Below the pieces are notes generated by a model, which did not search any database, was not told the origin of the DNA, and saw nothing but the letters and a program-made list of their open reading frames with translations. Made by a program: the position numbers and the translations under genes. A DNA stretch of 64,000 nt from the NCBI GenBank assembly GCA_023229865.1, contig JALNYL010000004.1:17773-81772 (forward strand), read 5' to 3'. Positions 583-52,663 of this stretch are shown here, piece after piece (the first letter of the stretch is position 1; each line of letters opens with the position of its first letter). Source of the DNA: Minisyncoccota bacterium. Lineage in GTDB: Bacteria > Patescibacteriota > Minisyncoccia > Phycocordibacterales > UBA1550.

Positions 583-2253
583 ATGACCCAAGACGAAGCA
601 TTTGAAATACTAAAAACAGGACGCAATGTCTTTGTGACAGGGCCTGCAGGGAGTGGGAAGACGCACCTCGTCAATCGCTACATTGCGTATCTCCGCGAGC
701 ACAATATCGATATCGGCATTACTGCGTCGACAGGGATTGCGGCTACGCACATGGGCGGCGTGACTATTCACTCGTGGGCAGGGATTGGTGTGGCGGCGCA
801 TCTCTCGCCGTACGACCTCGAGGCGATGCTTGAGAAGGGGTATCTCCATAAGCGTTTTGAAAAAGTGAAAGTGCTCATCATTGATGAGGTGTCGATGCTT
901 CACCATTTTCGTCTTGATTTGGTAAACAATGTGCTTAAAACGATGAAGCACTCATCGAAACCGTTTGGTGGTGTGCAAGTTATCTTGGTGGGAGATTTTT
1001 TCCAACTTCCGCCTATTGCGCGCATGGGAGAGCCCGAGGCGCGCTTTGTGTATGCGAGTGATGCGTGGAGGGAGGCTGGATTTACTATTTGTTATTTGTC
1101 GGAACAGTATCGTCAACAGGACGATGCGGCTATTTCAATCTTGAACGAGATTCGCGCAGGGCAAGTTTCTCCGCAGGCTCGTGCGCATTTGAAATCGCGC
1201 CACAATGTGCGATCGCCAAAGTTTACTACCTCAACAAAACTTTTTACGCACAACGCTGATGTGGATTCTTTGAATGACGACGAGCTCGATCGCATTCCTG
1301 ATAGTGAGGTCACTCAATACGAAATGACAACGCGTGGTAATGAAAAAATCGCAGCAACGCTCAAAAAGTCTTGTCTTGCCCCAGAATTTCTCCGCTTGAA
1401 ACCAGGTGCGCGTGTGATGTGTGTGAAAAACAATTTTGAAGCAGGGTATGTGAACGGCACGCTCGGCGTCGTCGTTGAGTGTGGAGAGATGGATGACCCT
1501 GTGATTCAGACTGCAAATGGAAAGACGATAACCATTTCGCGTGCATCTTGGAAGATTGAAGAGGACGGCAAGGTGAAAGCGGAGATTCTTCAATACCCAC
1601 TTCGTCTTGCGTGGGCAATCACCGTGCACAAGAGTCAGGGGATGAGCCTTGATGCAGTCGAGGTTGATCTCTCGAAATCATTTGAGCCAGGGATGGGGTA
1701 CGTGGCGCTTTCTCGTGTGCGCACGCTTGAGGGGCTCACGATTTTAGGAATCAATGAAAATGCGCTTCAGGTGCATAGCGAGGTGCGGGAACTTGATGCG
1801 GATTTCCGCGAGCTTTCGCGTGAGGCGCGGGAGAGTATGAAAAAGATTGACCCCAAAGAGCTCAAGCGTGAGCAGGAGGAATTTCTCGCGCGTTCAAAGC
1901 CACCAGAAAAAGAAAAGAAGCTTCCCACTCACAAAGAGACTGAGCTCCTTATCGCCGAGAAAAAAAGTCTCGCAGAAATTGCAGAGGCACGTGGTATGAC
2001 CGTGGAGACTATTATTTCACATATTGAAAAACTTATAGAAGAAGAGTCTCGCACATCGATGGAGTATTTGAAATTTGAAATTTCTCGTCCGCATTTTTTG
2101 AAAATAGAGAAGGCGATTGAAGAACTTCAGAAAGAGGGGAAAGTACTCCTCCTCTCTCCAATAAAAAACAAAGTCGGCCCCAATGTGTCATTTCTTCATA
2201 TCCGTCTTGCGCGAGCGCTTTTAGGGCACACACCAAAAGGCGAAGGGAAATAA
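583..2253 (+). CDS. PIF1/RecD-family ATP-dependent DNA helicase with C-terminal HTH-like domain
   Basis: Walker A GPAGSGKTH and Walker B LIIDEVSM are present, with the QLPPI motif and a C-terminal helicase/HTH region (LAEIAEARGMTVETIISHIEKL). Start chosen at the internal ATG at 583 (MTQDEAFEIL). An extended -10 TGCTACAAT lies at about 548-556. Confidence 0.7.
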   Translation: MTQDEAFEILKTGRNVFVTGPAGSGKTHLVNRYIAYLREHNIDIGITASTGIAATHMGGVTIHSWAGIGVAAHLSPYDLEAMLEKGYLHKRFEKVKVLIIDEVSMLHHFRLDLVNNVLKTMKHSSKPFGGVQVILVGDFFQLPPIARMGEPEARFVYASDAWREAGFTICYLSEQYRQQDDAAISILNEIRAGQVSPQARAHLKSRHNVRSPKFTTSTKLFTHNADVDSLNDDELDRIPDSEVTQYEMTTRGNEKIAATLKKSCLAPEFLRLKPGARVMCVKNNFEAGYVNGTLGVVVECGEMDDPVIQTANGKTITISRASWKIEEDGKVKAEILQYPLRLAWAITVHKSQGMSLDAVEVDLSKSFEPGMGYVALSRVRTLEGLTILGINENALQVHSEVRELDADFRELSREARESMKKIDPKELKREQEEFLARSKPPEKEKKLPTHKETELLIAEKKSLAEIAEARGMTVETIISHIEKLIEEESRTSMEYLKFEISRPHFLKIEKAIEELQKEGKVLLLSPIKNKVGPNVSFLHIRLARALLGHTPKGEGK

Positions 2254-7195: not shown

Positions 7196-7310
7196 CCCCG
7201 TCATGAAATAGTGGCGGGGTTTGTTTTTGCCAGTTTTCCATTGCGGTTATTATTCGTTCCGTTGTATAATATACGTATTACTGGAAGTAGTTTTTAATAG
7301 ATAATTTTAT

Positions 7311-8597
7311 ATGAAAAAGCCCCACGTAGTTGTGCTCGGTGGAAACTTTGCAGGTATGGGTAGCGCCCAGAAGATTCGTGAGTATGCAGGAAATGCGGTA
7401 GATATTACCGTTATTGATCGCAAGGATTATTTGCTTTTCGTTCCCAATATTCCGAATGAAGTTCTCGAAAACAGAGACCCTCAGGACTCTTTGAAGATGG
7501 ACATCCCATCAACACTCAAGAGAGATGGAATCAATTTTATTCAAGCAGAAGTTACTGGACTTGATGTAGACAAAAAGACCGTGACGTATGTACCAGCAGA
7601 GCGTCCGGGTGCGGAGGCTCATTCAATGGCATACGACTATGTTGTCGTTGCTGTCGGATGTCGTCTTGCTTTCGACAAGATTCCTGGTTTCGCTGAGTAC
7701 GGTGATACGGTTGCGGATTTTTATCACGGCAATCGTTTGCGCGCAAAGCTCCACAATGGTGGCTACAAGGGTGGACCGATTGTTATCGGTTCAGCACTTT
7801 GGCATCAGGGAGATGGGGCGAAGGATGTAAAGCCTTACGGCACTGGAAGTATCCCTGCAGCCCTTGCTGCATGTGAAGGTCCAACCGTGGAAATGGCACT
7901 TTCAATGGCTACATGGCTCCAGAATCACAACATGGGGGATGCGAAGAAAATCACCATCACAACTCCCGCTGAAGTCATCGCAGAGGATGCGGGCGAGAAG
8001 GTTGTGGGGACGCTTCTTGGGGCCGCAGGAGCTATGGGCTTCAACTATGTAAACAATACCCGCGATATCGTACGTCTCACGGAGACTCACATTGAGTTTG
8101 AAGGAGGCCAGAAGATTGAAGCGGAGATTAAGGTTATTTTCCCAGACTGGGAAGCGTACAAGTTCCTTCAGGGTCTTCCTATTTCTGACAACAAGGGCTT
8201 TGTGATTACTGACCTCCTTATGCGTAACCCAAAGTACCCTGAGGTATTCGCAGCAGGAGACTGTGCAGCGGTGACCGTGCCAAAGCTTGGCTCAATCGGG
8301 CACGAAGAATGTGAAATCGTTGGACGCCAGATCGCAGCAGCGGTGGGTAAGATGACCCCCGAAAAGGCAAATACACCTCTCAATCCGGTAGTACTCTGTC
8401 TTGGTGATATGGGAAATTCAAAAGCATTCTACATTCGTTCAAACTCTTGGTTTGGAGGGCCAACACAGGAACTTCGTTTTGGTCGTAGAAACTTCTTCCT
8501 TAAGATGCGCTACCGCGATCTCTTCTTCTGGGGTAAGGGCAAGACTCCTTCATGGGGAAATAAATTTGCCACATGGCTCGCAGAAGTTCTTAAGTAA
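7311..8597 (+). CDS. FAD-dependent pyridine nucleotide-disulfide oxidoreductase (sulfide:quinone reductase / NDH-2-like)
   Basis: N-terminal Rossmann HVVVLGGNFAGMGSA and a second dinucleotide motif FAAGDCAAV. Extended -10 TGTATAAT at about 7263-7270. Confidence 0.6.
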   Translation: MKKPHVVVLGGNFAGMGSAQKIREYAGNAVDITVIDRKDYLLFVPNIPNEVLENRDPQDSLKMDIPSTLKRDGINFIQAEVTGLDVDKKTVTYVPAERPGAEAHSMAYDYVVVAVGCRLAFDKIPGFAEYGDTVADFYHGNRLRAKLHNGGYKGGPIVIGSALWHQGDGAKDVKPYGTGSIPAALAACEGPTVEMALSMATWLQNHNMGDAKKITITTPAEVIAEDAGEKVVGTLLGAAGAMGFNYVNNTRDIVRLTETHIEFEGGQKIEAEIKVIFPDWEAYKFLQGLPISDNKGFVITDLLMRNPKYPEVFAAGDCAAVTVPKLGSIGHEECEIVGRQIAAAVGKMTPEKANTPLNPVVLCLGDMGNSKAFYIRSNSWFGGPTQELRFGRRNFFLKMRYRDLFFWGKGKTPSWGNKFATWLAEVLK

Positions 8598-14369: not shown

Positions 14370-14380
14370 CTGGTGATAAT

Positions 14381-14427
14381 AAAAACACAGGGCCCGCGAT
14401 TCAGCCGAATCGCGGGCCCTGTGTTTT
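14381..14427 (+). terminator. Bidirectional terminator hairpin with GATTCAGCCGAATC core
   Basis: AAAAACACAGGGCCCGCGATTCAGCCGAATCGCGGGCCCTGTGTTTT. It serves the convergent genes at 13638-14369 and 14433-14924. Confidence 0.6.
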
Positions 14428-14432
14428 GCATG

Positions 14433-14924
14433 CTACATCAATTTCCCGAGGAGATAGTAAGTGAGTTCTGCTTGCACATTAGTGCGTAGGTGTTTGCGTA
14501 CCTCCGTAAATGCCGTTGTGCCATCACGCCCACATTCTTGGATAATCACCCCTTGCCCTCCTGGGTGCTGCACGATGTAAGGAGTGAGATCGTACACGTT
14601 CCCATCGATAATCACCCAGCAATTGCTCTTTGTCGCGTGCTTTGCGACTTCAGCCTTGGTGAGAGTAGGAGCTTTTGTTGCGGGGGTTGTTTCCTGTGGC
14701 TGAGGTGCTTCTTTTACGGTCGTTGTGGGGGCTACAGATGTAGTAGTCTCGGGTGAGGCTGTCGCCACTCTGTTTACAGGCGCACTGCGCATCTGCCCCT
14801 GCCCGCCTCCGTTTTTCGACACCGATACGCTTGGTGTGTTGCTGTCAAAAACCCCCATAAAATATGCGACGGCGACGGCGCTCGCGATAGCCAATAAAAA
14901 AGTCGCAATTGATGATTTGCTCAT
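14433..14924 (-). CDS. Membrane-anchored cytochrome b5-like heme-binding domain protein
   Basis: N-terminal TM and a Thr/Pro-rich linker. C-terminal Cyt-b5 fold with NCWVIIDGNVYDLTPYIVQHPGGQGVI...CGRDGT (HPGG heme motif). Confidence 0.65.
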   Translation of the reverse strand: MSKSSIATFLLAIASAVAVAYFMGVFDSNTPSVSVSKNGGGQGQMRSAPVNRVATASPETTTSVAPTTTVKEAPQPQETTPATKAPTLTKAEVAKHATKSNCWVIIDGNVYDLTPYIVQHPGGQGVIIQECGRDGTTAFTEVRKHLRTNVQAELTYYLLGKLM

Positions 14925-21177: not shown

Positions 21178-21222
21178 CAACCCCCTGCTTTTCAAAAAAG
21201 TGGGGGTTGTTTGCACCCTTTT
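21178..21222 (+). terminator. Rho-independent terminator after nrdB
   Basis: AACAACCCCC-tgcttttcaaaaaagt-GGGGGTTGTT followed by a T-run. Confidence 0.55.
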
Positions 21223-21270
21223 TCCAGTGTAATTGAGTGCAATCTTATAGATAGTTGCTATAATGTGTCT

Positions 21271-22155
21271 ATGTCATTTTCCGTCACCAAGTTCCTTAAG
21301 GGAATAAAAGAAATAAATTTTAAATATTCATCATTTAGAAAAAATGCCAATGATCACTTGTTGATTAATGGAAATTCTGCGGATGTCCTAAAATCCTTTC
21401 CAAATGAATGTATAGATTTAATTTTTACAGACCCTCCATATAATGCTGATCTTGAGTACGGCTCTACTTATAAAGATAATTTATCTTGGGATGAATATTA
21501 TAAACAAGCAAAGAGCTGGTTCAAAGAGTATAATAGAATTTTGAGCAAGACTGGTTCTGTCTACATAATGAATTATCCAGAGGTTAATGCCCGCTTGCTC
21601 CCTTATCTCACTGACGAACTTGGCTTTAAATTGCAGCGCTGGATTACTTGGCATTACCCCACTAATATTGGGCACTCAAAGAAGAATTTCACAAGAAGTC
21701 AGAGATCTATTCTATTTTTAACAAAAACAAATAATTATACTTTTAATAGAGACAAAATTATTCAACCATATAAAAATGAGAATGTAGGTAAGATTAAAGA
21801 AAGAATTAAAAATGGCTCACGCGGGAGGGGTGCTTATGACATGCTCTCATTTCTTGATTTGCTTGAGATGAGGATTGCGGAAAAAAACTTCAACCCTCTC
21901 GATGTGCATGATGTTAATTTGCTTAAAAATATTTCAAAAGATAGATTGAATGGGAAGCATCCTTGTCAGCTCCCTTTTGAATTAATTAAGCGCTTTATAG
22001 AAGTCAGCTCTAACCCTGGGGATGTTGTTTTGGATCCATTTGCTGGTACTTTCAGTACTTCTTTTGTCGCGTCTGATTTAAAAAGAGCTTCTGTCGGTAT
22101 AGAAATTAATCCAAAATATGTTAGTCTTGGCGTTAAACGAATTAAAAATGGCTAA
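21271..22155 (+). CDS. Site-specific DNA methyltransferase, beta class (N6-adenine or N4-cytosine), DPPY motif
   Basis: Motif IV FTDPPYN lies N-terminal and motif I VLDPFAGTFSTS C-terminal (beta permutation). Extended -10 TGCTATAAT at 21256-21264 lies 6 nt before the ATG at 21271. Markedly AT-rich relative to flanking genes. Confidence 0.8.
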   Translation: MSFSVTKFLKGIKEINFKYSSFRKNANDHLLINGNSADVLKSFPNECIDLIFTDPPYNADLEYGSTYKDNLSWDEYYKQAKSWFKEYNRILSKTGSVYIMNYPEVNARLLPYLTDELGFKLQRWITWHYPTNIGHSKKNFTRSQRSILFLTKTNNYTFNRDKIIQPYKNENVGKIKERIKNGSRGRGAYDMLSFLDLLEMRIAEKNFNPLDVHDVNLLKNISKDRLNGKHPCQLPFELIKRFIEVSSNPGDVVLDPFAGTFSTSFVASDLKRASVGIEINPKYVSLGVKRIKNG

Positions 22156-23833
22156 GCAAACGGAACAACAAAAAAAAGAAAAACGACTCAGTAAGAATGT
22201 CTCAAGCACATTTAATAATGCGGGCTTTACTTGTGTGGGCAAAACTAAAGATATTGAAGTCATTGTTGACGGGCAAAAGTCGGATTTTGATAATATTTTT
22301 TATTACGAAAACAATATTATTTTTATAGAGGAGACAACAAATAGTACTTCAGAGCATGTTAGAAAAAAGTATGAATTTTATATGACATGCTGTAATAATA
22401 AAAATTTATTTTTAAATGAACTTAAAAGTAAATTTCCTGGAATTCGTAAGATTGTCACTCAGCACACTCCTTCTGAATTAAATTTTATATATGTTTATAC
22501 GTCATTAAATTCTGTTGATTGTAAATACCAAACAAGATACAAGGAAATATTTTTTTGGGACATAAAACAACTACTATATTTTTTGACCCTGTCTTCTATT
22601 ATTCAGAAAACATCAAAATATGAAATATTTACTGCCCTAGGGATACCTTTGGGGCAACAAATCAGTACCTCTACTTCTCGTGCGGGGTATGATGCAATGA
22701 TACTGCCACAAGTAGCCAGTGGTTTCCCAGATGGGTATCAAATATTCTCATTTTTTATTGATCCAGAAAATTTACTTCAGCAAGCATATGTCCTAAGAAA
22801 ATATGCCTGGTTAGACGCCGATCATTTATATCAAAGGATTTTAGTGAAAAATAAGATAAATGAAATGAGGGGGTACTTAGTTAACGAGAATAGAACATTT
22901 TTGAATAATATTATAGCCACTCTTCCAGATGACGTAAAAATAGATGATGACAAGGGTCACACCATAGCGGATGCAAGTAAATTGCGTGCTGGAGACAGAG
23001 TAAAAATACATATACCAGTTAACTCAAACAACATAGGAATTATTGATGGTCAGCATAGAATATTTGCTTATCACGAAGGTGATGATGTTCATGAGGCTAA
23101 GATATCTAAAATTAGATCAAAAAGACATCTTTTAATTACCGCAATATTATATCCGACGGGGATATCTCAAAAAGATAAGGAAGCCTTTGAGGCAAAGCTT
23201 TTTTTGGAAATAAATGACAAACAAACACCAATTAAGTCATCACTTAAACATGTAATATATACTGTAGTTGATCCATTTTCAGATATAGCTATTTCTAAAA
23301 GAATAGTACAGGAGCTATCAAAAAATGCTCCAATGAATGAAGTATTTGAAACAAATTATTTTGATAAAGGCAAACTTAGCACGACTTCAATCGTTAGTTA
23401 TGGAATAAAATATTTAGCAAAACTTGATGGTACAGACAGTCTTTTTTGTCTTTGGACAAACCCCAAAAAGGATGATTTAAAAAAGAGAAAGAGCCACAAG
23501 TTGCTGGATGCATATATTTCATTTAGTGCTACTCAGTTATCAATATTTTTGAGCGGTTTTAAGAGTGGTATTAATAAAGCAATGTGGACTCATGATCAAA
23601 AAATTAGCAAAGTTTTGACAGCGACTTCTATAAATGGGTTGATTCATTGCTTGAGATTACTTATACAAAATGGTAAGACAGGTGATTTTTTGTACTACAA
23701 TAAAAAGTTCAAGAATATAGAAAAAATAATTAATTTTTCGCCAGGGCAAAATGCAAAAGGAGAGGATTATTTCCCTTATAAATCTAGTCACTGGAAGGCC
23801 TTAGGAGAAGAAATCTACAATAAGTGCTTCTAA
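22148..23833 (+). CDS. DGQHR domain-containing protein (DndB/ParB-like nuclease superfamily) with extra N-terminal domain
   Basis: Literal DGQHR motif (NIGIIDGQHRIFAYH) embedded in a DndB-like region. Start ATG at 22148 overlaps the MTase stop (ATGGCTAA), indicating translational coupling. AT-rich, 561 aa. Confidence 0.7.
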   Translation: MAKQTEQQKKEKRLSKNVSSTFNNAGFTCVGKTKDIEVIVDGQKSDFDNIFYYENNIIFIEETTNSTSEHVRKKYEFYMTCCNNKNLFLNELKSKFPGIRKIVTQHTPSELNFIYVYTSLNSVDCKYQTRYKEIFFWDIKQLLYFLTLSSIIQKTSKYEIFTALGIPLGQQISTSTSRAGYDAMILPQVASGFPDGYQIFSFFIDPENLLQQAYVLRKYAWLDADHLYQRILVKNKINEMRGYLVNENRTFLNNIIATLPDDVKIDDDKGHTIADASKLRAGDRVKIHIPVNSNNIGIIDGQHRIFAYHEGDDVHEAKISKIRSKRHLLITAILYPTGISQKDKEAFEAKLFLEINDKQTPIKSSLKHVIYTVVDPFSDIAISKRIVQELSKNAPMNEVFETNYFDKGKLSTTSIVSYGIKYLAKLDGTDSLFCLWTNPKKDDLKKRKSHKLLDAYISFSATQLSIFLSGFKSGINKAMWTHDQKISKVLTATSINGLIHCLRLLIQNGKTGDFLYYNKKFKNIEKIINFSPGQNAKGEDYFPYKSSHWKALGEEIYNKCF

Positions 23834-23917
23834 AAGGAAATGGGGACAGCCACGGTTCAAAGAAAAAGGGACACCATTCTTTCGTAAATTGTGTGATGCA
23901 ATGTAACCCCAAAAATC

Positions 23918-23946
23918 CTGAATCAGCAGATTCACGTCTTGGACGA
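23918..23946 (+). repeat. 29-bp palindrome-containing repeat, copy 1 (CTGAATCAGCAGATTCACGTCTTGGACGA)
   Basis: Exact or near-exact copies at 25529-25557 and 49655-49683. Contains TGAATC-AGCA-GATTCA and CGTC-TTG-GACG inverted repeats. Confidence 0.7.
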
Positions 23947-25372: not shown

Positions 25373-26161
25373 ATGTTTAATCTACAAGGAAGGGTTGCTT
25401 TAGTTACGGGTGGTCGTCGCGGGATGGGCAAGGCTCATGCTCTTGCGCTTGCGAAGCAGGGGGCAAAGGTTGTCATCACCGACATCAACGTCAATGAGTG
25501 TGAGCTTGTTGCGGACGAGATCCGTGCGGCTGAATCAGCAGATTCACGTCCTGGACGAGAACTAGATGTCTCATGTTTCAATATGGACGTGTCGAACAAA
25601 GTCGATGTGGATGCGGTGTTTGATCAGGTTGTTGAGAAGTACGGTCGTCTCGACATTCTCGTGAACAACGCAGGTATCTATGAGTCGCATCCATTCCTGG
25701 AGCTCACCGAAGAGCAGTGGGACCGCACCATCAGTATCAATTTGAAGGGAGAGTTCCTCGTCGCTCAACGTGCCGCAAAAGAGATGGCGAAGAATAAGTA
25801 CGGTCGCATCATCAATATCGCATCTATCGCAAGTGGCGGGGTGGGTGTTGGTATTGCAGGTGGTGCACACTACACCGCATCAAAGGGTGGCATCATCGCC
25901 CTCACGGAGACGATGGCTATCGAGCTCGCGCCTCTCGGTATTAATGTAAATGCTATTGGCCCCGGCGCTATCAATACTCCTATGGCAGATGCAACAAAAA
26001 TGCCAAAAGAATATATGGATGCAATCCTCGCAGGGGTCCCACTCAAGCGCATGGGTGAATCAAACGAAGTTGCGGCGGCAGTTGTCTTCCTCGCATCCGA
26101 AGAAGCAAGCTACGTGACGGGCGCAACGCTCTACGTCGATGGTGGCTGGCTCGCAGCGTAG
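25373..26161 (+). CDS. SDR-family oxidoreductase (FabG-like) carrying an in-frame copy of the 29-bp repeat
   Basis: TGGRRGMGKAHALALAKQGAKVVI (TGxxxGxG), NNAG and YTASKGG (YxxxK). Repeat copy 2 at 25529-25557 encodes AESADSRPGRE within the coenzyme-binding region. Confidence 0.85.
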   Translation: MFNLQGRVALVTGGRRGMGKAHALALAKQGAKVVITDINVNECELVADEIRAAESADSRPGRELDVSCFNMDVSNKVDVDAVFDQVVEKYGRLDILVNNAGIYESHPFLELTEEQWDRTISINLKGEFLVAQRAAKEMAKNKYGRIINIASIASGGVGVGIAGGAHYTASKGGIIALTETMAIELAPLGINVNAIGPGAINTPMADATKMPKEYMDAILAGVPLKRMGESNEVAAAVVFLASEEASYVTGATLYVDGGWLAA

Positions 26162-38462: not shown

Positions 38463-38525
38463 TGGAGTCCTGTACAAGAATCGAACTTATGACAGTGCTT
38501 TTCAGGGCACTTACGTTGCCACTCC
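38463..38525 (-). ncRNA. tRNA-like element (acceptor-like stem GGAGT/ACTCC, T-arm TTCGATT, encoded 3' CCA) lacking a canonical D-arm
   Basis: Minus strand GGAGTGGCAACGTAAGTGCCCTGAAAAGCACTGTCATAAGTTCGATTCTTGTACAGGACTCCA. Could not be folded as a standard tRNA by eye. Confidence 0.3.
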
Positions 38526-38629
38526 GTCAACAGGCCTTGATTCCTCCACTAGCTCTATTTTATCAAAGGGAAAGGAAAAGAAAAAGGGCCCCACGTCGTT
38601 GTGGGGCCCTGGGTTGCGGCCGGAGCCGA

Positions 38630-48139: not shown

Positions 48140-49160
48140 TTTTGTGCTCCTTATTGTGAGTTATGGCGAGAGGCAGTCTTTCTCCAAGGCTCAATACATC
48201 GCCTTTGAAGTTTGATACCGCCCCTGCGTCAATTTCGCGATGAAGAATTTCCATGCCGCCATCGTAGCCAGCAGCAGTTCTCAGCCGCGCATCAAGTGCT
48301 TTGGCTTGTGCTACCCCGAGTGTCTCAATGCCGCGTGCTTTTTGTACAGCCGCATCTGCTTCGAGTCTCGCGATTTCAACTGCCGTAGTGGCCGCTTTTT
48401 CTTCTTCGCTTGCGCCGACAAGTTCAAAACTTACGAAGTCAACCTTGTGAACAGCAACCCCGAAGGTATCGATCACTCCCAGCGTACTGCCAGAAGTTTT
48501 ATTCACCTTTTCGATGTCAGAAGAGAAAGAACTCCCTTCACCTTCTTTATCGAGTGCACGGAAGTCGTCGTATGTTCTGCCACGTGCAAAATCTGCAATG
48601 GCCCCCTTCACGGTTGCGTTGGCGTTATTAAGCCATTTCCCCTTGAAGATAAAGACAAGTTTGATTGGGTTCACGACTCGGTATGTGACATTGACGAGGA
48701 GATTGATTTTGAAGTTTCCCTTGAGATCAACCCCCTCAACAAGAATGGGGTAGGAAGACAAGAAATACAGCGAATTCACATACTCCGACTTGCGGACGAT
48801 ATCAAAACCTTCTTCGTCTTTCGACGAATCGCCTTTAGTCAACTTGTCCCAGTCAAAGTGCCACACATGGATTTCTTTGAGCGGATACAGCAAGCTCACG
48901 AGAAACACGCCGAGAATGCTGAAGGGGCGAGAAAAGTTACTGTTCTCTCCTTCGGCAATGAGGCCAGTTTTGTAATCGTAATGGTAACCCGTCCCCTTAA
49001 GGTTCGGGATTACTTTTTCACACGACTCGCCAGCCACCACAAACTTGATCTCCCCGGTGGGGACATAACAAGTTTGTTTTTCGTAACGTGCCCCGTAGAG
49101 GAGCCAGACACAGAAAGCAATTACTGCAACAACCAAAAGTCCAACAATAAATGTGAACAT
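48123..49160 (-). CDS. SPFH/Band-7-like membrane protein (hypothetical)
   Basis: N-terminal TM, central domain with a prohibitin/stomatin-like pattern and a coiled-coil C-terminus. SD AGGAGAA. Weak family call. Confidence 0.4.
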   Translation of the reverse strand: MFTFIVGLLVVAVIAFCVWLLYGARYEKQTCYVPTGEIKFVVAGESCEKVIPNLKGTGYHYDYKTGLIAEGENSNFSRPFSILGVFLVSLLYPLKEIHVWHFDWDKLTKGDSSKDEEGFDIVRKSEYVNSLYFLSSYPILVEGVDLKGNFKINLLVNVTYRVVNPIKLVFIFKGKWLNNANATVKGAIADFARGRTYDDFRALDKEGEGSSFSSDIEKVNKTSGSTLGVIDTFGVAVHKVDFVSFELVGASEEEKAATTAVEIARLEADAAVQKARGIETLGVAQAKALDARLRTAAGYDGGMEILHREIDAGAVSNFKGDVLSLGERLPLAITHNKEHKNATQS

Positions 49161-49218
49161 GTTCTTCTCCTAAGTGAGTTAATTTGCAATTATCAATGAA
49201 CCGATAATCTCTGACAAC

Positions 49219-49246
49219 ATTATACACTTTTTGTCAAAAAAGTCAA
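49219..49246 (-). promoter_or_regulatory. Strong sigma-70 promoter (TTGACT-16 nt-TGTATAAT) for the minus-strand operon 49160-47354
   Basis: -35 at 49241-49246 and extended -10 at 49219-49226 on the minus strand. Confidence 0.6.
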
Positions 49247-49293
49247 GGTCTGCGGGTGGCAGGAAAGGCTTGGGAAATAAGACAAATTACGAG

Positions 49294-49375
49294 TGAGCAT
49301 GGGGAGACTTGAACTCCCAATCCTTACAGAATGCGCTTCTGAGACGCACGCGTATACCAATTCCGCCACATGCTC
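49294..49375 (-). tRNA. tRNA-Leu (anticodon CAG)
   Basis: Acceptor GAGCATG/CATGCTC, anticodon loop CTCAGAA, long variable arm, T-arm GGGAGTTCAAGTCTCCC. No CCA encoded. Confidence 0.75.
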
Positions 49376-49384
49376 ATTTCAGTT

Positions 49385-49425
49385 TAATTGTGCCGAGGAG
49401 AGGACTTGAACCTCCATGGGTCGCC
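49385..49425 (-). pseudogene. Partial tRNA-Leu 3' half (variable arm + T-arm + acceptor 3' strand) without a matching 5' half
   Basis: Minus-strand CGGGGCGACCCATGGAGGTTCAAGTCCTCTCCTCGGCA is nearly identical to the 3' half of tRNA-Leu(TAG). No D-arm or anticodon arm could be found. Confidence 0.45.
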
Positions 49426-49545
49426 CCGCCTTTTCTTAATGCCTGTTTCGTGTTCGCTCAACAACGGTATTTGCGCATTAGCGCACCAGATTTAAATCAA
49501 AACAGTTTGATTTAAATTCACTCGGCAAGCATATCGTGTACAAAG

Positions 49546-49627
49546 TGCTGGGAAGAGGACTTGAACCTCCATGGGTCACCCCGCTTGCTCCTAAGGCAAG
49601 TGCGTCTACCAATTTCGCCATCCCAGC
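49546..49627 (-). tRNA. tRNA-Leu (anticodon TAG)
   Basis: Acceptor GCTGGGA/TCCCAGC, anticodon loop CTTAGGA, long variable arm, T-arm GGAGGTTCAAGTCCTCT. Confidence 0.75.
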
Positions 49628-49654
49628 ACTCTATGCACGATGCGTCTACAATTT

Positions 49655-49683
49655 CTGAATCAGCAGATTCACGTCTTGGACGA
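49655..49683 (+). repeat. 29-bp repeat, copy 3, just upstream of the tRNA cluster
   Basis: CTGAATCAGCAGATTCACGTCTTGGACGA, identical to copy 1. Confidence 0.7.
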
Positions 49684-49930
49684 CCTCGGCATACAACACA
49701 TAAGGTACACTAAAATTGAAGAAAAGGCGAGGGGGGTTCACAGGATTCGCCTCTCCTTTCAGTCGAGACTAATCTTGTGTGGTCACGAGTTACTAAGTCT
49801 GCTCAGATGATTACATCCTGTGCGGACTAAGTACTCTCGACCCCGGCTCGCCATTTTGTCTGCTGACAAAATATGGCTGCGCCTTGCACAAACGGAAAAC
49901 CTGCCGCAGGGCAGGTTTTCTTATCGTTTG

Positions 49931-50003
49931 TGCACCCAGTAGGATTCGAACCTACGACCGTCTCGTTAAGAGCGAGCTGCTCTACCAACTGAGCTATGGA
50001 TGC
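49931..50003 (-). tRNA. tRNA-Lys (anticodon CTT)
   Basis: Acceptor GCATCCA/TGGGTGC (one G-U pair), D-arm GCTCAGTTGGTAGAGC, anticodon loop CTCTTAA, T-arm GTAGGTTCGAATCCTAC. Confidence 0.8.
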
Positions 50004-50272
50004 ATCTATTCTTCATCAGTAACTTTTGAGATAAACCCTCTGGGCCTACCAAAACAGTTATGGATGCATGTACGAGATATTATACACAAATAATAGAAAA
50101 TGTGAAGTGGGGGAGGCGGGATGGGACTCGCCTCTCCTTGCAGTCGAGACCATCCATTTTAATAGTCGCGTTGCTCCTTTAAAATGGTGGGCCTTCGGTT
50201 CGGGTCCCATCTACTGGATACACAATAGCAAAAAAAAGACAGGGAAGGGACCCTGTCTTTTTTTTGCTATTG

Positions 50273-50353
50273 TGTCCGGGATGGGACTCGAACCCATAAG
50301 CCTTGCGGCGGGAAATTTTAAGTCTCCTGTGTATACCATTCCACCACCCGGAC
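50273..50353 (-). tRNA. tRNA-Leu (anticodon TAA)
   Basis: Acceptor GTCCGGG/CCCGGAC, anticodon loop CTTAAAA, long variable arm, T-arm ATGGGTTCGAGTCCCAT. Confidence 0.8.
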
Positions 50354-50533
50354 ATGTTTATTTGTATTTTATTCCTGACGTTGGGTTTGTTCCGGCTTGC
50401 GATTCTGATTTTTGTACCTCAAAAATCATGTCGTAAGATTTCGAGCAACTAAGTTGCGAGAAATTTACGACCCGACGCAAGTGAAGCAGTTCACTTGCTC
50501 CCACGCCAAGAAAATCCTGGCGGATTTTCTTTG

Positions 50534-50605
50534 AGGCGTGGGCGAGAATCGAACTCGCGTATAGAGGTTTTGCAAACGACTGCCTTACCACTTGGCTACC
50601 ACGCC
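50534..50605 (-). tRNA. tRNA-Cys (anticodon GCA), imperfect anticodon stem
   Basis: Acceptor GGCGTGG/CCACGCC, discriminator U73 (a Cys identity element), anticodon loop TTGCAAA, T-arm GCGAGTTCGATTCTCGC. The anticodon stem has two mismatches. Confidence 0.6.
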
Positions 50606-50795
50606 TTTATTTATTATTTTAACCCCTTTGAAACTTCCTTGTAACACTTTTGACACAAGTGAAACTTCCTAACCATATCCTTTTTGTTTGGTGGACTCAA
50701 TAAGATTCCACCAAAGTCTTTGAGCTCATCTTTGCATTTATCACACTTTGGTTTAATGGCCATATTTTGTGTTTAACTCAATGCACCTGCCTATC

Positions 50796-51122
50796 TTATC
50801 CTTGTTGTCCCAACTCGTCAATTCTTTGGCGATTGCGCTCACCTTCATCAATCTTCACTTCGAGCACGGGAAGGTTCTTTAAGTGTGCGTGAGTCTTGAT
50901 GTATTCACGGAGTTCAGTGCGCTTGCGCTTTGCGAAATCAAGAGCTTTCTCTTGCTCGCTCGTAGGGAAGCAGGTGAAGTAAATGGTCCCGCGCTTGAAG
51001 TCAGGGGAGATCGTTGCGTCGGTGATGGTGATAAGGGAATTTTTCCCAGCTTCACGCGTAAAAAACTCAGCTGCAATAGAGCGGAGGAATGAACGCATTT
51101 TATCTTGTCGGGGGGTGGTCAT
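50796..51122 (-). CDS. rbfA: Ribosome-binding factor A
   Basis: RbfA-like sequence and size. Lies immediately downstream of infB, as in the canonical operon. Confidence 0.75.
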   Translation of the reverse strand: MTTPRQDKMRSFLRSIAAEFFTREAGKNSLITITDATISPDFKRGTIYFTCFPTSEQEKALDFAKRKRTELREYIKTHAHLKNLPVLEVKIDEGERNRQRIDELGQQG

Positions 51123-51139
51123 GGGGTAGTTGTTAGTTG

Positions 51140-52663
51140 TTATTTCTCACTCATTACAAATGCTTCGAGCACGTCTCCGCCAGCGATCTCCATTTTTGAT
51201 TCAACCATCATGCCGAATTCATTCCCTTCATCAACTTTCTTTGCTGCAATCTTTTGTGACTGAAGTCCTTCAATCTTGCCACGGCCAATCTCAACCTCGC
51301 GACGCATGATTTTTACCTGAGCGCCTACTTCGATAGTTCCGGTGAGGACTTTTCCTCCCACAACTTGCTTGTGTTTCGTCGCGCTGAATGTCTTGAGAAT
51401 CTTTGCTGTGCCTACAATGTCCTCGCCCATAGTCTTTGGGGTGCGACGATCGAGTTCCTCATTGAGCCATTCTGAAAGTTTGTAAATGATATCGAAAGTT
51501 TTGATCGTGATACCAAAACGCTCTGCGATGTCTTGTGCGCCACGCTCAACCTTGGTGTGGAAGCCGAGGATAATAGCACTGTCTGAGCCCGAGGCGAGCT
51601 TTGCGTCGTTTTCACCAATAGTTCCAACGCCCTTTGCGATGATTTTGATAGCGATACGCTCGCGCTCGATTTTGCCGAGTTCCTTCTCGAGTGCCTCAAG
51701 GGTTCCTGCTACGTCTGATTTCAAAACGATAGGTACAATGAGTGCATTGTCAGCGAGGGGGATAGTGCGAATGATTTTTGCAGCAGGATTCTTTGCGCGT
51801 GCCTCACGGATCTCGAGCTGTACCTTCTCGGCATCTTTCTTGTTTTCGTATGCACGGAATGTGGTGCCCACTGCGGGAAGTGAATCAAAGCCGGTGATCT
51901 GAATAGGGGACGAGAACGTCGCCTCAGAAACTTGCTTGCCGAGGAAATTCTCAATAGCGCGTACTGGTGACATGCTCTCTTCTGCGAGAATAAACATCCC
52001 TTTCTTGAGGGTGCCGTTGGTAATGATGAGCGTTGCTGAGGTGCCGCGCTTTGTGTCGATGTGTGACTCAACCACGATACCTTCTGCGGGGAGGGAAGTG
52101 TCGCCTTCGAGATTTTCCATCTCTGCGACGAGAAGCATCATATCGAGAAGCTCAGGAATACCAGTTCCAATTTTTGCAGAAATAGGTACAAAGGGCACAT
52201 CGCCACCGAAACCTTCGAGGTAGATCTCGTTCTCGGCGAGATTCTGCTTGGTGCGCTCGATGTTTGCGTTGGGCTTGTCGATTTTGTTGATAGCAACAAT
52301 GTAAGGGACGCCTGCTTCTTTGATGGCGCGGAGTGCCTCTTTAGTTTGTTCCTTTACGCCGTCTTCTGCAGACACGACGAGAATAGCAATGTCAGCCACA
52401 CCTGCTCCACGTGCACGCATCTTTGAAAACGCTTCGTGTCCTGGGGTGTCGAGGAAGGTGATACGCTCTGCGGTGCTCGTCTCCCGTGTCTTGTGATCAA
52501 CTTCGTACGCAGAAAGGTGCTGTGTGATACCACCTGCTTCGCCTGCAACAACGTTTGATTTGCGGATATAGTCAAGAAGGCTCGACTTGCCGTGGTCGAT
52601 GTGCCCCATGATAACGACGATGGGTGGACGGGGGATGATTTTTGGTTGAGCCTTTTTGGTCAT
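51140..52663 (-). CDS. infB: Translation initiation factor IF-2 (short form lacking the N-terminal extension)
   Basis: GTPase G1 [17 protein letters not shown]3 DTPGHEAF and G4 NKIDK. C-terminal domains. Confidence 0.9.

Follow-up and report, generated by a model that had tools for sequence, protein, structure and literature searches.

Among the described systems closest to the elements reported here, the folded single-stranded genome of CTXphi is integrated at dif by the host recombinases XerCD, and its integration leaves one functional dif site together with attP2 and attP1 (PMC3089051), while the integration of elements at transfer RNA (tRNA) genes is known to yield tRNA gene fragments as a common product (PMC9897764). 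The present analysis concerns two related elements, A and B, that lie in a tRNA gene cluster (49293-50605) of a Minisyncoccota bacterium genome (contig JALNYL010000004.1), of which a stretch of 64,000 nucleotides (nt), here called the window, was analyzed. On balance, A and B are probably members of a superfamily, apparently not described before, of structured cassettes without proteins that sit in the T-loop of tRNA genes and are restricted to the candidate phyla radiation (CPR). A preliminary description of the cluster had offered two alternatives for these elements, scars of past integrations at tRNA genes or an unannotated structured RNA family, and each proves partly true of the same elements. 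The RNA family is borne out by 83 copies found with a covariance model and by a secondary structure supported by covariation. Of the scar alternative, the insertion signatures stand (a direct repeat from C56, empty and occupied sites, and tandem arrays), but the elements are not mere scars, the body of B being conserved like a tRNA. The comparison with related genomes that the description had called for showed both empty and occupied orthologous sites.

With CTXphi, the integrative mobile elements exploiting Xer (IMEX) and the attC sites of integrons, the cassettes share two inverted, target-like sequences that can pair within one strand, as a hairpin, to give a double-stranded attachment site; folding is strand-specific, and a host recombinase could act in trans. 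As in the CTXphi type, one functional site is accompanied by inverted and direct non-functional copies (PMC3089051), here in a direct-inverted-direct arrangement. The cassettes differ from these systems in their target, which is the tRNA T-loop rather than dif or attI, in having no linked recombinase and no known single-stranded replicative form, and in a cargo that is a structured module of 70-130 nt; no similarity to the dif or attC consensus was noticed by eye in the elements. Islands and prophages that enter tRNA genes through tyrosine integrases likewise leave direct repeats extending from the T-loop up to, or slightly past, the 3' end of the tRNA, supply a replacement 3' end so that the tRNA stays functional, and accrete in tandem. 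The cassette inserts, too, are flanked by direct repeats of the 3' part of the tRNA with the crossover in the T-loop, but they have no integrase, measure about 95-170 nt rather than kilobases, carry an inverted copy of the target and a conserved, covarying body, and use about 17 tRNA species with near-identical bodies. Miniature inverted-repeat transposable elements (MITEs) and cis-mobilizable elements (CIMEs), which are moved in trans, resemble the cassettes in being small, non-coding and multi-copy; in both, inverted repeats bound the body and the target is present as a direct repeat. In the cassettes, however, the inverted repeats are copies of the target tRNA rather than fixed termini, the duplication of 18-19 base pairs (bp) greatly exceeds usual target-site duplications, strong purifying selection acts on the body, and no autonomous relative was found in 73 loci. 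The cassettes, which adjoin tRNA genes, also resemble tRNA-like structures (the tRNA-like domain of transfer-messenger RNA (tmRNA), viral tRNA-like structures, mascRNA and the bacterial Y-RNA YrlA) in their cloverleaf-like four-way junction, whose closing helix can mimic the acceptor and T stems of a real tRNA together with its discriminator; unlike these, the cassettes are not recognized by ARAGORN or Rfam, their T-loop is split with the body in its place, the acceptor mimic is lost in most copies, and there is neither an encoded CCA nor a tag reading frame.

In every well-preserved copy, the tRNA strand carries, in order, the tRNA, a short trailer, in most cases a palindromic terminator, the tRNA 3' end in inverted orientation, finishing ...GGATTCGAACC, the structured body, and then the same 3' end in direct orientation. 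This direct copy begins at T-loop position C56 in essentially every case and covers 18-27 nt, usually extending through the discriminator and a further 1-5 nt, sometimes 11-17 nt. A single long palindrome spans the T-loop, the terminator and the inverted T-loop; it is perfect in three loci (L010, L016 and L023). Inserts are 95-300 nt long and as a rule non-coding, and nearly all copies have one minimal size. Where the copy within the tRNA (left, L) and the displaced direct copy (right, R) are not identical, the inverted copy matches L at 62 positions and R at 27, leaving 35 at which it matches neither, and the clear cases stand at 11:0, 7:0, 7:1 and 6:0 in favor of L; thus, the meaningful inverted repeat is the one formed by the tRNA end and the inverted copy across the terminator. 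The R copy decays, and the inverted arm is often decayed as well, with 7-10 nt kept. Recurrent small hairpins sometimes split the R arm immediately after CGAWTCC (GAATTAGCAAATTC... in L007, 3541-3590, and in L067; CTGCCTGCCGGCAGG in L058 and L060), and in L014 and L038 a piece resembling the X domain described below does so, which suggests that such interruptions are further nested modules.

An exact-pattern scan of GTDB, with one genome per species, found the core of these elements as a 22-mer in eight CPR genomes, a sporadic distribution among Saccharibacteria, Parcubacteria/Paceibacterota and Nomurabacteria, and a slightly degenerate pattern recovered 65 metagenome contigs, many of them from groundwater. 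Among the loci found, those closest to the window cluster are from genome bins of Candidatus Nomurabacteria and Paceibacterota. A co-oriented tRNA ends 41-302 nt upstream, mostly 80-125 nt, in 65 of 81 core instances, and most of the remaining 16 are explained by contig ends (several), a tRNA with a group I intron (L009) or a 1-kb cargo (L018). The adjoining tRNAs are those for Ile, Lys, Tyr, Leu, Ser, Asn, Arg and Gly, with about 17 anticodons. The recurrence of the core in eight genomes and 65 contigs near co-oriented tRNAs therefore places the pattern beyond chance. Apart from tRNAs, Rfam detected a single group I intron, and nothing else, in loci L002-L009. In L009, this intron (1161-1564, minus strand; 71 bits) splits a tRNA, after which a normal type-1 cassette follows with arms that match the 3' end of that tRNA; the idea, prompted by this locus, that the element is part of a group I intron was rejected, as the intron lies in the upstream tRNA and the element downstream as usual. 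A phage origin was likewise discarded: only the tRNAs match phage records, the motif has no match in viral contigs, and looser patterns gave only chance matches inside coding regions there.

The type-1 body was folded with RNAalifold on 24 diverse copies, and the prediction was supported by pair counting. It is a four-way junction of helix P1, two unpaired A residues, and hairpins P2a, P2 and P3. P1 pairs GGATTCG with CGAATCC, plus a few further base pairs, and comes from the T-loop-derived inverted repeat; P2a is a CC-GAA-GG mini-hairpin (CT..AG in L002, and longer elsewhere, CCT..AGG or CCAG..CTGG); P2 is a long AT-rich hairpin with many compensatory changes; and P3, the invariant core GUCUC-GA-CY-GNA-RG-GA-GAGGC, contains tandem G.A pairs, a GNA triloop and a Y-R pair split evenly between U-A and C-G across the sequences. 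In this fold, 87.8% of cells are paired versus 40-48% with the partners slid, and the covariation score is 0.39 versus at most 0.16 with slid partners; 0 of 500 shuffles reach the observed 0.39. The covarying pairs include 85/89 in P3 (U-A in 12 sequences, C-G in 12) and 33/76 in P2 (GC in 12, CG in 8, UA in 4); in the outer P1 columns, about 40-50% of cells are paired, and most copies have a decayed acceptor portion in the 5' arm. Across 74 distinct copies in a model-based alignment, U.G occurs in 74/74 and 18/74 at two P3 pairs and A.C in 0-1, giving P3 totals of 92 G.U versus 1 A.C. The folded strand is therefore the tRNA-sense strand, which contradicts the plus-strand reading implied by the preliminary description, that of an RNA ending in the terminator. 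Confidence in the family membership, fold and strand is high.

Element B (50108-50221, minus strand) is a type-1 cloverleaf cassette that scores 102 bits with covariance model R1 (E 7e-27). On the minus strand, it comprises a 5' arm that is a decayed inverted copy of the tRNA 3' end (50201-50214), AA and the P2a mini-hairpin (50192-50200), P2 (50150-50191), the P3 core hairpin (50130-50150) and the R copy of tRNA-Leu(TAA) from C56 onward (50117-50130). The last is the 14-nt CGAGTCCCATCCCG, an exact copy of 50277-50290, in agreement with the earlier remark that B carries the 3' end of this tRNA. The copies found by the model in the fetched loci include three in L007 (after Lys-CTT, Leu-TAG and Leu-TAA), and in the window it retrieves only B and, as a partial match, A (24.9 bits); a further weak match at 14374-14433 was rejected as a plain hairpin. 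Also rejected was a small open reading frame (ORF; 50 amino acids (aa), 50058-50210) with a Shine-Dalgarno-like AAGGAG, since the AGGAG strings are halves of the tandem G.A motif, GGAG opposite CGAC, that is common to P2 and P3, and P2 varies in length by non-multiples of three.

Element A (49726-49893, minus strand) is a type-2 composite, recognized by its partial match to R1, by X alignment and by its fold and minimum free energy (MFE) structure. It has in common with B only the P3 core hairpin (49749-49769) and a T-loop-like 3' arm (CGAATCCTGTG..., 49726-49749), whereas its 5' two-thirds are an X domain composed of hairpin H1 (49850-49877) and the long hairpin H2 (49781-49842), GGGGTCGAGAGTACTTAGT...ACTTAGTAACTCGTGACC, all on the minus strand; pairing of 49841-49852 with the 3' arm (GGCGAG..GGGG / CCCC..CTCGCC) forms a closing helix. 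A long-range pairing in A, CACAGGAT / ATCCTGTG, was considered as a conserved helix, but it is missing from the other type-2 members and was treated as local. Covariation in X covers 37 pairs, 16 with compensatory changes and one an invariant G.U. The domain is also found without P3 in L025, L066 and L050, and the close relative L008 has an X-type body after tRNA-Leu(TAA) and another between the Cys and Leu-TAA genes. Within the window, a search with the X signature located two tandem X-bodied cassettes (61056-61186 and 61222-61382, plus strand) downstream of tRNA-Trp (60942-61013). Each consists of a terminator, an inverted tRNA-Trp 3' end, AA with a P2a-like hairpin, an X domain and a direct copy, and their MFE folds close with a P1 of 9-15 bp, in the second cassette a perfect 15-bp helix. 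X bodies thus occur alone, as after tRNA-Trp, or fused to P3, as in element A, which is a mosaic. The superfamily formula is an inverted tRNA end, AA, P2a, then P2 with P3, or X, or X with P3, and finally a direct tRNA end.

At the empty site in L025, tRNA-Lys follows tRNA-Leu(TAA) after 48 nt, and a promoter-bearing flank comes directly after tRNA-Leu(TAA); in L041 and the window, the same flank follows the R copy. It follows that R represents the original end of the tRNA and that the insert spans C56 to the core. The tRNA-Tyr gene of the window is likewise an empty site with a terminator only, and is occupied in L004, L011, L023 and L031. Between the window and L008, tRNA-Leu(TAA) is identical and the body types after it differ; 73 identical nt extend from the T-stem of tRNA-Cys into the downstream spacer, beyond which the sequences are unrelated, and a claim that the spacer between Cys and Leu-TAA is a relic of the X-type element in L008 was dropped. 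The whole unit is repeated in tandem in L004, L021 and L030, as are the cassettes after tRNA-Trp in the window, and near-identical body variants occur at different tRNAs with arms matched to each. In L018, tRNA-Arg(GCG) is separated from a type-1 body by a gene for a 199-aa predicted membrane protein and a spacer of about 260 nt (7303-8441), with perfect 19-nt direct repeats on either side; this cargo of about 1 kb is the only one seen in a cassette. Confidence in these insertion dynamics is good.

Element B is an old copy inherited by vertical descent; comparison of the orthologous Leu-TAA site shows a body that evolves like tRNA and arms that evolve like spacer. Compared with L007 and L041, respectively, identity is 98.8% and 86% for the tRNA, 98.6% and 87% for the body, 75% and 28% for the spacer, 68% and 63% for the inverted arm, 79% and 74% for the R copy, and 44% and 68% for the downstream flank. 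The tRNA-like conservation of the body beside spacer-like arms argues against inert scars, and the decay of the arms argues against the outer arms being needed by old copies. Because the body is conserved like tRNA while the arms decay, we consider it a functional RNA with moderate confidence.

By the route envisaged here, the cassette would enter a tRNA gene at the T-loop, between T55 and C56, and the inserted block would bring a replacement tRNA 3' end that keeps the tRNA intact, along with the inverted copy of the 3' end, the conserved structured body and, usually, a palindromic terminator. The original 3' end would be pushed downstream and kept as a slowly decaying direct repeat, resulting in the direct-inverted-direct triple repeat. 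The cassette might spread as a folded single strand in which the carried 3' end and its inverted copy pair and so imitate the double-stranded tRNA gene target, with a host recombinase exchanging strands in trans at T55/C56. As the repeat topology (functional target, inverted copy, content and displaced direct copy) is that of the CTXphi product, a folded single strand acted on by a host recombinase is favored, with low confidence and as an analogy rather than as demonstrated membership. The fuller proposal, that self-contained, mobile structured-RNA cassettes home into the conserved T-loop without an encoded protein, that the fold (as RNA or single-stranded DNA) recruits a host recombinase or tRNA-processing enzymes, and that the body RNA has a CPR-specific cellular or selfish function, is advanced tentatively, as a possibility that falls short of likely.

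Several observations weigh against cassettes of this kind. No recombinase, transposase or reverse transcriptase was seen in or near the elements across the 73 loci and the window cluster, in line with protein clustering of 926 ORFs from those loci, in which no family occurred in more than nine; nor was any free or circular form or any phage copy seen. Strong terminators stand between the tRNA and the body, and no clear promoter for the body was found; transcription of the body is putative. The decayed arms of many copies could not now form a target-mimicking hairpin. Under a simple site-specific model, the presence of one body variant at several tRNAs with matched arms needs later gene conversion or correction of the palindrome. 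Inverted acceptor copies across terminators, 8-12 nt long, also occur at a minority of tRNAs without a cassette (tRNA-Cys of the window, 50500-50542, and L008, L023 and L067), and such copies may be a general property of these genomes.

The same evidence bears on four other explanations. It is rather unlikely, in our judgment, that the elements are non-mobile small RNA genes in which a tRNA-derived acceptor/T-arm stem serves as a scaffold for maturation and stabilization of the body by RNase P, RNase Z and the CCA-adding enzyme and the duplicated ends are selected processing signals. The tRNA-level conservation of the body and its fold on the tRNA-sense strand would suit such genes, as would the intact arms that rebuild the acceptor and T stem as a continuous helix (L016, L041, L002 and the 15-bp P1 of the second tRNA-Trp cassette) and the R copy, which often has its own terminator as a tRNA gene does. 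However, most copies show decay of the acceptor region in the 5' arm, the outer P1 being only about 40-50% paired, and the inverted arm follows the tRNA and not R, so that the helix between inverted arm and R is not kept by compensation; nor do such genes account for the empty and occupied sites, the exchange of bodies between close relatives, the tandem arrays, the cargo or the sporadic presence of the strict motif in eight CPR species. Inert leftovers of integrase-mediated islands or prophages at the T-loop, later deleted almost wholly, with the core as the island end beside attR, would explain the direct repeats of tRNA 3' ends, which are a hallmark of such integrations, and the tRNA fragments that they commonly produce (PMC9897764), and would fit the 1-kb cargo of L018 as well as the displaced 3' half and the 5' remnants of other tRNAs in the window. 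We consider this improbable: neither integrase nor phage genes lie near any of the 73 loci, the motif is absent from viral contigs, a classical attP has no inverted target copy, nearly all copies have the same minimal size, and neither compensatory changes in P2, P2a and P3 nor tRNA-level conservation of the body would be expected in a decaying island end.

Replication template switching at terminator and T-arm palindromes, with fold-back synthesis leaving functionless inverted and direct duplications, seems more improbable still. It could draw on the long palindrome of tRNA 3' end, terminator and inverted copy (perfect in L010 and L023), on the self-complementary TTCGAA of the T-loop and on the inverted acceptor copies that occur even where there is no body, and it could still explain the arms; for the bodies it is largely refuted, as it can neither put the same 70-nt foreign body at about 17 tRNAs in different phyla nor hold that body at 98.6% identity while the spacer diverges. 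Hardly any weight is given to small RNAs transcribed from the plus strand, antisense to the tRNA cluster and ending at the A/T-tract hairpins: these hairpins are bidirectional terminators, and an element read from the plus strand would indeed end in a hairpin and T-run, but on that strand G.U would become A.C (92 versus 1 in P3, and the invariant G.U of X), and symmetric terminators also follow the element-less tRNA-Cys and tRNA-Tyr. Guide RNA scaffolds, of the omega RNA (TnpB/IscB) or IS110 bridge RNA kind, were rejected because no nuclease or recombinase gene is adjacent; an omega-RNA-like guide would, moreover, be self-targeting, as the intact tRNA keeps the full target next to GGTT.

The cluster that surrounds A and B was as first described: ARAGORN and Rfam, the checks proposed for it, call five canonical tRNA genes on the minus strand of 49293-50605 and nothing on the spacers. 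These are tRNA-Cys(GCA) (50533-50605; Rfam 59 bits), tRNA-Leu(TAA) (50272-50353), whose 3' end supplies, from C56 onward, the L copy of the direct repeat, tRNA-Lys(CTT) (49930-50003), tRNA-Leu(TAG) (49545-49627) and tRNA-Leu(CAG) (49293-49375). No curated Rfam 15 family matched the spacers, A or B, either at the gathering score or at E<=10; a permissive scan of 48800-51200 (E<=10) returned, beyond the tRNAs, spurious microRNA and small RNA matches to two terminator hairpins. A and B do not have the features of a canonical tRNA or tmRNA, with no ARAGORN or RF00005 call on either, and a tRNA, tmRNA or permuted tRNA was rejected for both strands on the ARAGORN result; a plus-strand resemblance to the tmRNA 5' end (GGGG..GGATTCG) is due to the T-loop in reverse complement. 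Cellular housekeeping genes (rbfA, a short IF-2, S1, gyrA, clpB and miaA) surround the cluster, and these neighbors and the closest loci found indicate that the window comes from a CPR bacterium rather than a phage. Elsewhere in the window, Rfam reports a weak tRNA (38466-38536, minus strand; 35 bits, barely above the gathering score) that has no ARAGORN call and overlaps the start of an opposite-strand ORF.

Further structural details of the preliminary description also hold, among them the core common to both elements (49743-49769 versus 50124-50150, 25/27 identical), the long-range complementarity within them (for example, 50120-50130 / 50201-50211 and 50147-50162 / 50179-50194) and an AT-only palindrome downstream of tRNA-Leu(TAG), with perfect 12-nt arms (49490-49501 / 49506-49517) and a 4-nt loop. 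The A/T-tract hairpins (arms 49895-49905 / 49910-49920 and 50220-50244 / 50251-50275), which had been taken for the ends of the elements, are indeed perfect and terminator-like, and a consensus scan finds a GC-rich hairpin followed by a T-run in both (49894-49921 and 50240-50266), but they are the minus-strand terminators of the upstream genes, tRNA-Lys and tRNA-Leu(TAA), and on the folding strand they lie at the 5' side of the elements. The palindromic terminator of tRNA-Leu(TAA) (50220-50275, both strands) has perfect 25-nt arms of A-tract, GC stem and T-tract that begin within the acceptor 3' strand, and that of tRNA-Lys (49885-49934, both strands) has outer arms TGCACAAACG / CGTTTGTGCA that include the last 4 nt of the tRNA. 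After tRNA-Cys, a palindromic terminator without a body (50500-50542) has as its outer arms the acceptor 3' strand (GGCGTGGG, plus strand) and an inverted copy with an 8-nt match; symmetric terminators are general in this genome, as those after the element-less tRNA-Cys and tRNA-Tyr exemplify. A PD-(D/E)XK endonuclease-family gene (58663-59097, plus strand) ends 4 nt before tRNA-Tyr. The consensus scan also places a sigma-70-like promoter of tRNA-Lys, TTCACA-16-TATAAT, at 50079-50106 on the minus strand, homologous to the flank directly after tRNA-Leu(TAA) at the empty site of L025.

The orphan 3' half of a tRNA-Leu gene that had been noted in the cluster is real but stems from an event separate from the elements, being the displaced end of an older tRNA-Leu(TAG) gene (49385-49442, minus strand; direct repeat and comparison with L041). 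It contains a similarity block (49390-49442) of 53 nt that is 83% identical to tRNA-Leu(TAG), and its acceptor strand CCTCGGC corresponds to the GCCGAGG of a 5' remnant and to the L041-type tRNA, but not to the current tRNA. This 5' remnant, GCCGAGGT ... AATTGTAGACGCA (49641-49690, minus strand), was delimited by comparison with L041 and is interrupted by a hairpin repeat, TGAATCTGCTGATTCA (49656-49671). The promoter region and the first 8 nt of the older gene (GCCGAGGT, 49683-49690) are still in place, a D-arm piece (49641-49653) comes next, and farther downstream is the 3' half that matches it (…CCTCTCCTCGGCA, 49391-49430). The current tRNA-Leu(TAG) gene (whole part 49533-49641) sits nested between the 5' and 3' remnants of the older copy (49385-49690) and has a different acceptor stem, which a 14-nt inverted repeat of leader and trailer lengthens to about 21 bp. 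A decayed 5' remnant of tRNA-Lys (50046-50067, minus strand; 81% direct repeat) copies the first 22 nt of that gene 41 nt upstream of the real tRNA, directly after the conserved promoter and at the position where relatives (L025 and L041) begin the tRNA; L041 has the same arrangement plus an inserted GAATCAGCTGATTC hairpin. Both the nesting of tRNA-Leu(TAG) and the tRNA-Lys remnant had been overlooked. The hairpin repeat, (CGTCCAAGAC)GTGAATCTGCTGATTCAG, has three copies in the window (49653-49680, 23916-23935 and 25528-25547, minus strand), against a chance expectation of 0.01, and one in L008 (4314-4333); one copy lies within the old tRNA-Leu 5' remnant and one apparently within a dehydrogenase ORF. 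A separate low-GC stretch of the window (21211-23833; GC 0.33 at 22-24 kb), which encodes a DndB-like protein and a DNA methylase, probably represents a foreign islet for restriction or defense.

CPR (Patescibacteria) genomes are tiny, and to our knowledge almost nothing has been described of their non-coding RNAs and mobile DNA. The duplicated tRNA ends and nested remnants described here explain the tRNA 'fragments' that annotation pipelines see at this locus. At least two RNA-like folds supported by covariation, type 1 and X, are covered by no curated family and are tied to a precise, repeated insertion point in tRNA genes. If the body is a functional RNA, it would represent a new conserved RNA class in a major bacterial radiation; should host enzymes alone move the cassettes, no smaller site-specific integrative element would be known, and the cassettes would offer a natural case of a folded attachment site directed at tRNA genes.

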